Assembly (NCBI GenBank): GCA_035084275.1
Contig: CM068771.1
Coordinates: 682,001-746,000, forward strand
Origin: Hydrolagus colliei
Lineage: Eukaryota
Reading direction: 5' to 3'
Length of the DNA: 64,000 nucleotides
The translations under genes and the position numbers were made by a program. The notes beneath the pieces are model-generated. The model was not told where the DNA came from. It saw only the letters and a program-made list of their open reading frames with translations, and made no database searches. Below, one piece after another: positions 27,401-30,400 of this stretch (positions are counted from its first letter, which is position 1; each line of letters starts with the position of its first letter).

Positions 27401-30400
27401 TTCTCCCCCCCACACACTCCCCTCCCCCCACTCTCCCCTCCCCACCACTCTCCCCTCCCCACTCTGCCCCCCCCCCCACACACTCTCCCCTCCCCCCACC
27501 TCCCCCCACACACTCTTCCCCCCCCCACACACACTCTTCCCCCCCCCACTCTCCCCTCCCCACCACTCTCCCCTCCCCACTCTCCCCCCACACACTCTCC
27601 CCTCCCCCCACCTCCCCCCACACACTCTCCCCTCCCCCCCCCACACACACTCCCCCTCCCCCCTGTTAGGTTCAGAAATTTAGACAATCTGTAGCTAGAA
27701 AATAGTCAGTCAAAAACAAGTAAGTAGGTATAGCAAAAACGATTTATTCAACTACATTCATATAAGTCATCAATTAGACTCATATGCCCATAGGGTCAGT
27801 TGTCTCTCAAGCAGACAAAGGACGTCGTGTCCAGCGTTTTCACATCTTTTATACAGAAAAAGAGATATATCTTGAGAAAGGGGTAGTCCCTTTCTTAAAC
27901 CAATTACAATACAGTCACGTACATATCTTGAAACTGAAAATTACTAGCCCAAACTGCCTTTTTGCCTCCTGCACAATTCGTTCGTTTCACACATTCTCGC
28001 TTATCTCTTCTGTCGTACCCAAGGCCGTCTCTGCAGATCACAACCAAGGCTGCAGTTTTCACAGAAGAGACAATAGAGAAGCTGTTACGTCAACAATCGA
28101 ACTAATCTGATTTCGATTATGGCTTTGCAAACAAGTATTAGTAAAGCATTCTATTTAATTAAAATATCTATCAGACTCACATGCTGCCACCAAACAAGTT
28201 TCTTGAAAATATAACATAACCATTTTCTCCTCTAACATTCCCTCCTTTTTATGATATTTCAATAAACTTGTCGCTCAACCTTTTTTTACATACAACAGTA
28301 TTTTACATCAGTATAAACCCTCCATCCGACAAGCGGTTTTTTGGGGGGGAACGTCATGAGTTACAATTTGTAGTAGTTAGTTGGGGAACAGTTGATTTAA
28401 ATGGAGGTCATCCTCTTCGTCTGGTAGATATACATCATCCTCCTTCAGTAATGTTATACATTCTTGGTGTGACAGCATTAAGGTACTTGGGAACATTTTT
28501 ACAATCATACTGCGAATCAAGTGTACAACACAACAGGAAAACAGCATGAGTACAACTATTACTATCAGTAGGTACATGCCAAGCTTCCACAGCCATGCCC
28601 CCCACCCCCATCCGGAGAGCCATGTGCCTAACCAATCCGCCGGTCTTTCGAGTTCCCTGATAGCAGATCACATGTGAGAGATTATATTAGTCAAATTTTG
28701 ATGTCCGTCTGGGATAAAGAAACAACAACTGGTGCCCAGCATCTTACAGGTCCCCCCTTTTTCTGCCGTTAGCATGTCTATATCAGTTGGTGTTGTATTA
28801 CTGCTTTTCACATTGCCGCCATTTCACTATCAATTACTTCGACCGCTTCCTCTGTCTCATTGGCCAGGGCATGTAGTTGGGCTGCCAGGCCATTTATTTT
28901 AGTCAGTGCCGCTCCTACTCCTATATTGGCCCAAAATGACCAGCCCAACATTTCTCCCTGGGTGGTCCATGGGTTCATAGTGGTATACCCATGATCCTCT
29001 GCTTCCAAAGGATATACTGCAATACCAGTGATCACAATGGCCGGGTAGCAGCAACCTGTCCACAGATGTGGTAATTGTAAGTAGGCCGTTCACCCACAAA
29101 TCCAAACCATGGCTCCCTCACCTGGGTCCTGTAGGGTTGAATCACAGGTAATCTCCCTCAAAGTCATGTTTAGCTTTTTTTAATAGTGCATTTTTGGGAG
29201 GTGAAATTAGCAATTATACGGACACTGCAAACACTATGTCCCACAGCCTGTCCTGTGTTCATCTGGGTGCATAAGCATGCTTCACCTTCCCTGTATGGTA
29301 CTCGATACGTGGGGTTATACTGTTGGTTCTGTGAGGTTCTGGAATTGGTGGGTATGGAGTGACTAACGTTGTTGACCGCATTATAGGCCATGATCAACAA
29401 GCGAGCCATGCTATTGAGGATGGCGTCGTTTCTTGTTGTCCCGTTCAAAGTGTCCAGTCATCCCCTTCCCCTGGCACAGCCAATCAAATGATTATATTTT
29501 GATACAAGTCCCCATATGGCCTTTCAATGCCGCACCACCATATTCCTGCGTCGGAATTGGCAAGACTTGTGATTTCTACCTCAGCTCCATTGCTATTCCG
29601 TTCCTTCGATATACTAAATCGGGACCCTGTGGCATGTCCATTATTATTTTTAGTGGATGCTACCACTAAATGCCAATCATAGGGTCCACAGGGGTTTTTG
29701 CAGAGGTACTTCTCATCATTTTTATGCTGGTAGTATACATTGTTGCCGCGCTGTCGCGCTGCTTCACTGTATCGCGATAAGGCCAAGGATTACACTTAAA
29801 ACCCAGGGTCTTCCCTTTTTCCCCTGACACATGTTTATCCTTGCTGGCTGCGTTTACGAGGCATCCCACTACTGACAGCAACACTATCGCAATCATGACA
29901 GAGACCAGTCAGCTCCCTTTTTACCTGTGCTGTTGGTTGTCTTCTTCACCGGGGTTGAGACGAGTGCAACCTATCGTACGCACTCCCCTTCGTAGCCGGA
30001 CTTTACACACCCGTCAGGTGCCCCTTACTGACTGGTCCCTTCTGTTACCTTTTTACAGTGCGTGAGATGAACCCAAGTGTCCCGCTCAGCAATCCTGACC
30101 GCCGTTGGTGTCGTCAGTAGCACTTGAAATGGTCCTTTCCACTTAGGCTGATGCCATGTTTTTCTTTTTATGTCCTTGACTAGTATCCAGTCTCCAGGTA
30201 ATAGCTGCGGGGTCAACAACGGCTCAGCCAGCTCCTGTGGTGGTAGGACATTTAACATAGTCTTTTTGTTAGTCACTTTTATCCTTTCTTGGACACATGG
30301 TGTTCACGTGAACATCTCATGCCACTCTCGTGCTTATTCACATTCTCTTTTACACCCAACTCTGCCTTTCTTCGCAAACAAGCTCTTCTTATCGCAGTCT

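Follow-up and report, generated by a model that had tools for sequence, protein, structure and literature searches.

The 64,000-nucleotide stretch of Hydrolagus colliei DNA analysed here (the window; GenBank assembly GCA_035084275.1, contig CM068771.1, positions 682,001 to 746,000 of the forward strand) carries on its minus strand a provirus, spanning 27664..35723, in which long terminal repeats (LTRs), a polypurine tract and a primer-binding site are present. The envelope gene (env) of this provirus begins with an immunoglobulin V domain (IgV) of CD300/NILT type, located ahead of the surface (SU) and transmembrane (TM) subunits of the envelope protein (Env). An earlier note, made from the sequence alone, had proposed that this domain was captured from a host immune receptor, and all of the motifs quoted in it were found at the given places on the minus strand. 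In this study we conclude that the IgV is almost certainly a functional part of Env and very probably of host origin, while the window copy itself is incapable of making Env.

Within the window, env directly follows the integrase C-terminus, as the note had described, the MLVIN_C match (E 3e-15) ending at 30025 and the env ATG lying at 29896. The single frameshift that had been reported in the IgV was also confirmed: the leader and the B-strand Cys are in one frame and strands C to G (29789-29487) in another, with the break near 29760-29790. Even unrepaired, the latter frame alone reached 33.7 bits (E 4.5e-8) against Pfam V-set, for which the curated cut-off is 26, and further scores of 34.8 and 37.3 bits were obtained. 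The description of a normal SU C-terminus could not be upheld, as the window env has lost most of the linker that follows the IgV, the CXXC block and the furin-site block; moreover, stops occur immediately behind the IgV and behind WICG, and the TM lies in two frames. A CX6CC motif and a stretch resembling the immunosuppressive domain (ISD) do occur in the TM remnant, as had been claimed. The window's own TM fragments produced no Pfam TM match, and the TM of an in-frame copy matches PF00429.

The domain is not peculiar to the window, as other copies carry it in frame with env. Among the 39 loci fetched first, 12 contain an uninterrupted frame that starts ahead of the signal peptide and extends to the end of the IgV, and four have a single 609-codon frame in which the signal peptide is followed by the V-set domain (E 3.4e-9), an acidic linker, CWIC, the SU C-domain, RVKR and a TM with CX6CC; these are intact relatives of the kind for which the earlier note had suggested a genome search. 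In the in-frame copy CWIC, at residue 217, represents the SU CXXC, and the furin site, ISD and CX6CC are all present. When 51 loci were screened with stricter motif criteria, four full frames were again obtained; no differences separate the four copies in the two parts compared, and they are taken to represent one event or few. The IgV is found in 51 of 51 loci, a set which was itself found by way of the IgV, and the SU CXXC block in 17, the window lacking it. The same genome also houses other Env families, and at ten of their loci none of 386 open reading frames (ORFs) contains an IgV. Such abundant gamma-type Env families (L079-L088; 36-45% TM identity) have no N-terminal receptor-binding domain (RBD), and in their longer frames the CXXC appears soon after the leader.

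Selection was assessed from pairwise ratios of nonsynonymous to synonymous substitution (dN/dS) with Fisher tests, the IgV pairs between distant subfamilies comprising 110-114 codons. Comparisons of the IgV across distant subfamilies gave dN/dS values of 0.24-0.27 and 0.18-0.19 (p<1e-4); those with the subfamily of the window gave 0.32 (p 0.0009 and 0.005), and half a domain gave 0.16. In one comparable pair dN/dS was 0.28 for the SU C-domain, 0.19 for TM, 0.14 for reverse transcriptase (RT) and 0.50 for gag. The IgV thus displays purifying values similar to those of the rest of Env, and the domain was therefore kept under selection while the virus replicated.

The affinity to the CD300/pIgR (polymeric immunoglobulin receptor) type that the note had recognised is supported by the nearest sequences, by fold and by scores on host profiles, and the host origin of the domain by its similarity to host receptors. 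The invariant columns C20, D102, G104 and C108 correspond to the B- and F-strand cysteines and the D-x-G-x-Y/W-x-C motif, and the extra C-C' cysteine pair reads as Cx3C in the window and its relatives. A fold model based on a 48-row alignment (11 other Env rows and 36 host rows) displayed the expected immunoglobulin (Ig) fold, as a V-type beta-sandwich, with a mean predicted local distance difference test (pLDDT) score of 85.8 and low confidence only at residues 29-37, in the BC loop. This model superposes on CD300a with a Z of 13.3 and a root mean square deviation of 2.6 over 103 residues, its best matches being CD300lf, CD300a, CD300c, pIgR, NKp44 and TREM2; fold searches for the nearest host domain were likewise led by CD300 and pIgR. 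The RBDs of murine leukaemia virus (MLV) and Env-Pb(1) were not among the 50 matches listed in those searches. In a BFVD fold search, no named retroviral Env was among the 50 matches listed, the best being poxvirus, herpesvirus, adenovirus and unnamed Ig proteins. The BC segment, counted from B-Cys to C-Cys, measures 21-33 residues in 11 Env rows compared to a host median of 14, and differs by indels even between subfamilies of the H. colliei genome.

Concerning the donor, the closest proteins outside viruses are the CMRF35-like and pIgR-like receptors of teleosts, none of the library matches being named NILT. The Env IgV is 42% identical to a ray-finned-fish Cx3C-type domain over 81 aa, and the window's own frame 39% over 80 aa; the available part of 10.1101/2022.04.21.489081 attributes Cx3C spacing to the NILT domains of teleosts, not to CD300, TREM or pIgR of humans. 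An Env-only profile run against 473 host domains placed Cx3C domains in all of the top 30 positions, with medians of 28 bits for the CD300-like cluster of the chimaera's own genome and 48 bits for library Cx3C domains. A D-x-Y motif following the F-strand Cys was seen in 13 of the 14 Env rows that could be read, in 49 of 86 Cx3C domains from hosts, in 10 of 139 Cx6-8C domains and in 0 of 11 own-genome domains. A tree of CD300/pIgR-type domains, of the kind that the note had proposed, was built from 104 rows. All 13 Env rows group together in it (support 99/89), three of them (P0022, P0064 and P0140) being labelled Env by domain likeness only, with no downstream Env match; their Cx3C sister branch is weakly supported. 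In approximately unbiased (AU) tests on a 45-row tree, grouping Env with Cx3C domains improved the fit over that of the free tree (p-AU 0.72).

The own-genome cluster was considered as a donor and is disfavoured, though not formally rejected, on its Cx6-8C spacing (19 of 19 domains, with no Cx3C among these), its low profile scores and its match of 26-35% to the Env IgV. This cluster (C29, 11.739-11.856 Mb; L052-L057 and L070-L075) comprises about 20 single-exon V domains of Cx7C-type CD300/pIgR-like character, and one of its subgroups matches mouse CD300lf (E 1e-19) with the FG-loop Asp kept. The donor was likely a Cx3C-type gene, and a single capture from such a gene is favoured. Since the nearest host type is the Cx3C type of ray-finned fish and not the chimaera's own Cx7C cluster, the capture probably took place outside the lineage of H. 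colliei; transfer would have been from host to virus, because the family is spread across jawed vertebrates.

Relatives of this Env were found well beyond the chimaera. TM-based and profile searches recovered Env proteins from goldfish, Cirrhinus, Leuciscus, Onychostoma and Triplophysa, while searches with the IgV recovered a wrasse Env (46% identity) and elephant shark entries (68-71% identity) that are annotated as host V-set proteins; a preceding word-index search of the IgV region against Env-length proteins gave none of 65 candidates, which reflects its limited sensitivity, as the later searches found relatives. On a host-only Cx3C profile 16 of 31 Env homologues exceed 15 bits, elephant shark, wrasse and several cypriniform fishes being among the carriers, and all 16 of these IgVs score higher on the Cx3C than on the Cx7C profile. 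Most of the remaining 15 proteins are N-terminally short, and the cyprinid relatives, at 13-16 bits, fall below the Pfam V-set cut-off. As judged from these sequences, the IgV-Env is a broad lineage common to viruses of cartilaginous and ray-finned fish rather than the result of a local event.

In three relatives (P0169, P0175 and P0179) the leader is joined to the linker without an IgV. The two IgV-less relatives with a usable TM nest among IgV-bearing Envs, which points to secondary loss or gene-model artefacts, and two of the three have the same leader-linker junction, which suggests a natural IgV-less sublineage. Database labels do not always disclose the lineage: the elephant shark entries P0009, P0012 and P0184 (UniRef A0A4W3INH6, A0A4W3JWJ9; XP_007895674), named Ig V-set or uncharacterized, are env fragments belonging to it, and two of its Env proteins (P0170 and P0178) are filed under a Plesiomonas metagenome-assembled genome, likely as fish DNA in a bacterial bin.

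An attachment role for the IgV is probable, and its residues offer an indication as to how it might bind. The register relative to CD300lf was set via a host exon that aligns ungapped to mouse CD300lf, so that position +8 from the F-strand Cys equals position 98. According to the available part of PMC6166816, Asp98 of CD300lf binds the Ca2+ that holds phosphocholine, while Tyr34, Trp89 and Met100 form the pocket floor. Of 16 Env IgVs, 15 have retained an Asp at Cys+8 and a Tyr at +10, and at the places of Tyr34, Trp89, Asp98 and Met100 the Env domains have Tyr, Trp (Tyr in cyprinids), Asp and Tyr; the domains are only 25-45% alike overall, yet these pocket residues are fixed. Because the pocket Asp, Tyr and aromatic residues are retained at CD300lf positions, we favour, at even confidence, the view that the captured IgV is an attachment module which would grip phospholipid headgroups via a retained metal-dependent pocket, and the case for this predicted pocket being its main binding mode is about equally balanced. 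Regarding the ligands mentioned in the earlier note, lipid headgroups thus have sequence support while IgM and polymeric Ig have none; a literature search returned no papers on lipid binding by fish pIgR-like proteins.

The course of events may be envisaged along the lines of the two-step capture model of 10.1101/2024.03.17.585361. In the present case the mRNA of a host Cx3C-type receptor would be co-packaged and recombination would place its IgV into Env. Capture would most plausibly have occurred in ray-finned fish, with subsequent spread between fish classes. The IgV would attach the virus to the cell first, its lengthened BC loop contributing host-range specificity, and triggering via the C-domain, CXXC-CX6CC isomerisation and TM fusion would ensue as in other gamma-type Envs. 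These latter steps are established for MLV-like Env.

Several observations weigh against a captured, lipid-binding attachment domain. The CC' loop is four residues shorter than that of CD300lf (Cx3C as opposed to Cys36-Cys44), the pocket residues Gln41 and Arg42 have no clear counterpart, and the Asp/Tyr pair may have a structural role, for it is also present in host Cx3C domains whose ligand is unknown. The IgV may be dispensable, given the three IgV-less relatives in or near the lineage. Two close pairs gave non-significant IgV dN/dS values (0.49, p 0.16, and 0.32, p 0.10), and most pairs use one common reference copy. The fold matching is partly circular, as 36 of 48 alignment rows are host domains; a single-sequence model attained a pLDDT of only 40.6 and was not used, and VIA Z-scores for Siglec-5 and butyrophilin are within 2 of the best. 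As regards the donor, the Cx3C sister branch in the 104-row tree has support of 88/33; in the 45-row tree Env is not one group and the T-cell-receptor outgroup attaches inside it, and joining Env with the own-genome cluster gave a worse fit that was not rejected (p-AU 0.062). The host domains of the library were, moreover, chosen by similarity to the query. The outgroup consists of tandem T-cell-receptor-like V segments (L058, C2:116.46-116.47 Mb).

The most serious alternative, to which we attach a smaller but substantial likelihood, accepts the same capture and holds that the IgV has become a classical protein-binding RBD, in which a fish entry receptor is recognised by the enlarged BC loop while the old pocket survives as a mere vestige. 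The domain does occupy the gamma-type RBD slot, ahead of the acidic linker and CXXC; its BC loop is long and indel-variable among the subfamilies of this genome, and no other part of the model has low confidence, so that the loop resembles the variable loops seen in MLV-type RBDs. Fixed pocket residues in domains of such low overall similarity speak against a vestigial pocket, however, and the IgV-less relatives are hard to square with an essential RBD unless they are defective. Those same relatives would be accommodated if the IgV, on the surface of virions and of infected cells, served as an immune decoy or shield, competing for the ligand of a host NILT/CD300-type receptor while the C-domain alone mediates entry. 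The donor family consists of immune receptors (available part of 10.1101/2022.04.21.489081) and the BFVD matches include many host-like Ig domains in DNA viruses; nevertheless, we regard a decoy as improbable, for the domain sits where RBDs sit and has been kept across fish classes without matching receptors, no Cx3C having been seen among the 19 own-cluster domains examined.

Binding of IgM or polymeric Ig in the manner of pIgR domain 1, which would target the virus to mucosal or B-cell surfaces, appears very improbable. While pIgR gives the best PDB sequence matches, each of its scores adds up contributions from five domains, in which no single stretch passes, and the strongest stretch lies in domain 3 or 5 rather than in the Ig-binding domain 1. 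It is the BC loop of domain 1 that binds Ig, and the BC loop is the most altered part of the Env IgV. Domains of pIgR are furthermore of the Cx7C type, as seen in the available part of 10.1101/2022.04.21.489081. Recombination of a host exon into a copy that had already integrated, without any viral function, would be in keeping with the broken state of the window copy and with the CD300-like exon cluster in the genome; it is the least credible of these explanations, given that the IgV is in all 51 loci of the set found through it, is under purifying selection, is common to teleost viruses and is just 26-35% like the genome's own exons. Insertion of this kind is refuted by the in-frame copies, the dN/dS values and the IgV in teleost Env homologues.

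The predicted lipid-gripping attachment module, of probable host origin, can be compared with several described systems, the published side being drawn from the available parts of the sources cited. The preprint of Hotzel (10.1101/2024.03.17.585361) reports a SIRP-like host IgV serving as RBD in mammalian alpha-like Envs without CXXC, and terms this the first such capture; it reports that Envs with CXXC contain no additional class of RBD and does not settle whether the MLV-type RBDs came from a host, and in its available part the words fish, CD300, CMRF and pIgR do not occur. Members of that class (RBD-C of Env-Dbi and Env-Per) share with the fish lineage a canonical host-derived IgV with B-F cysteines, N-terminal after the signal peptide, a still visible similarity to host immune receptors, and an occurrence in several host lineages with one young provirus. 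The fish lineage differs in its likely donor, which would be of CD300/NILT type rather than SIRP, in the CXXC in SU, in its hosts from two classes of fish, and in a BC loop that is 7-19 residues longer, the SIRP-like RBD being without loop expansions. It would work like the SIRP-like class, yet is not a member of it because the SU CXXC is present. The CD300-type capture in a CXXC Env is a second, independent host-IgV capture besides the SIRP-like precedent. The RBD-C of MLV, feline leukaemia virus, Env-Pb(1) and zebrafish ZFERV also combines an IgV-like fold in the RBD slot with a CXXC gamma-type Env and an expanded variable loop, but has no B-F disulfide and no recognisable host sequence, its host origin being stated as unknown; in contrast, the fish IgV-Env retains both B-F cysteines and 39-45% identity to host domains.

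Teleost NILT, CMRF35-like and pIgR-like Cx3C domains (P0100, P0128 and P0011; 10.1101/2022.04.21.489081) have the same Cx3C, KY-x-C, D-x-G-x-Y/W-x-C and strand-G D-x-Y elements, but continue into a stalk, membrane anchor and signalling tail, whereas the Env IgV is fused to SU and TM and has a long BC loop. It is an intronless fusion within env between LTRs and hence no receptor gene, only its domain being of CD300/NILT type. The mammalian lipid receptors CD300lf and CD300a (PMC6166816) are its best structural matches, with the Asp98, Trp89 and Tyr34 positions kept; they differ in Cx7C spacing, a longer CC' loop and about 22% identity, and their ligand is known while lipid binding by the Env IgV is predicted only. 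The lineage may be among the cartilaginous and ray-finned Envs with CX6CC and ISD in the TM-based classification of anamniote gamma-type Envs by Chen et al. (10.1101/2021.11.23.469661), in the available main text of which the terms immunoglobulin, V-set, CD300 and CMRF are absent (its supplements and journal version may differ). No report of a CD300/V-set domain in a fish Env was found in the available parts of the literature searched, including PMC9967133, 10.1101/2021.11.23.469661, 10.1101/2023.10.07.561363, PMC10072453, PMC10435555, PMC6001957 and PMC8672886, although supplements, Repbase-type catalogues or subscription papers may hold one.

Table 1. Parts of the H. colliei provirus, in window coordinates.
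Feature	Position	Strand	Remarks
5' LTR	35150..35723	-	TG...CA ends; 100% match to 3' LTR over 551 bp
Primer-binding site	35130..35147	-	Sequence adjoining 5' LTR
Internal region standing in for most of gag-pol	30286..34300	-	About 4 kb, largely non-coding
gag start, 17 codons (within internal region)	34299-34249	-	
pol remnant (within internal region)	32960-32544	-	
TM-like scrap, 17 codons, second and short (within internal region)	31340-31290	-	
Integrase C-terminal domain	30025..30285	-	PF18697 (MLVIN_C), E 3e-15; 89.5% identity to pol frame of fuller copy
env start and predicted signal peptide	29846..29896	-	ATG at 29896; hydrophobic N-terminus, kept in other copies
CD300/NILT-type IgV domain	29487..29845	-	Frameshift in BC segment
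IgV B-strand Cys	29794-29792	-	
IgV Cx3C cysteine pair	29702 and 29690	-	
IgV F-strand Cys	29534-29532	-	
IgV FG-loop Asp	29510-29508	-	
Linker and SU C-domain remnant	28996..29484	-	CXXC block and furin-site block gone; internal stops
TM subunit remnant: fusion-peptide region, ISD-like stretch, CX6CC, membrane anchor	28377..28995	-	Split over two frames
Polypurine tract	28238..28250	-	Adjoins 3' LTR
3' LTR	27664..28237	-	LTR comparison

The provirus itself (Table 1) is defective and, as its LTRs are 100% identical over the 551 bp compared, young. It is flanked by 4-bp CCCC in low-complexity DNA, making a target-site duplication no more than possible, and its primer-binding site is presumably of the tRNA-Pro type, as in MLV. 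The internal region is common to 29 places at near full length and 91-100% identity, and none of seven ORFs searched within it had a Pfam match; the subfamily with this region in place of gag-pol numbers about 30 copies. Ten of the 40 scored matches to the IgV stretch, the window included, are identical over 417 bp, with LTR pairs that are 99.8-100% alike, and the window provirus belongs to a young non-autonomous subfamily that likely spread in trans with proteins of other copies. The pol remnant resembles a different subfamily (L060, L061 and L064) at 91% and L029 at 78%; since it is nearest to another subfamily and a second, short TM-like scrap is present, the element looks recombinant. Its 5' leader (34324-35135) contains imperfect tandem repeats of about 200 bp, the number of which varies among copies. 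In fuller copies pol is nearest to MLV-like RT (best PDB RT matches E 3e-136, compared to 5e-53 for foamy RT), and the MLV-like RT together with the MLV-type integrase C-terminus (PF18697) assigns the element, on sequence grounds, to the class I (gamma/epsilon-like) endogenous retroviruses.

The provirus is located, in the same orientation, inside an intron of a major histocompatibility complex (MHC) class II beta-like gene (19345-39114, minus strand), of which the beta-1 exon (~38800-39100; PF00969) and the beta-2 exon (~22670-22900; C1-set) were recognised. As the LTRs are identical the insertion may be polymorphic, and it could alter splicing of this MHC class II beta-like allele. Elsewhere in the window, at 43782-44293, a frame with a BED-finger-like start is found, which we take to be probably a hAT transposon remnant.

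The host-gene origin of gamma-type IgV-like RBDs is stated to be open in the available part of 10.1101/2024.03.17.585361, where the host-derived case sits in a CXXC-less Env; the capture described here sits in a CXXC Env, with the captured domain still recognisable by sequence. Its graded divergence, from near-host domains in chimaera and wrasse to nearly unrecognisable ones in cyprinids, with one loop expanding, provides a natural series for RBD emergence. In elephant shark, such env fragments bear the annotation of host Ig V-set proteins, which inflates the number of immune receptors counted in cartilaginous fish. If the lipid pocket works, a retroviral Env would here be equipped with a lipid receptor of its own, and a ligand would be suggested for the orphan NILT/CMRF35-like receptors of fish. 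Rather more speculatively, in what would be an old and widespread lineage, the IgV might act as a virus-borne, metal-dependent phospholipid receptor, a form of "apoptotic mimicry in reverse" that would ease jumps between ray-finned and cartilaginous fish, and might represent a living intermediate on the path by which a canonical host IgV becomes an MLV-type RBD through loop expansion.

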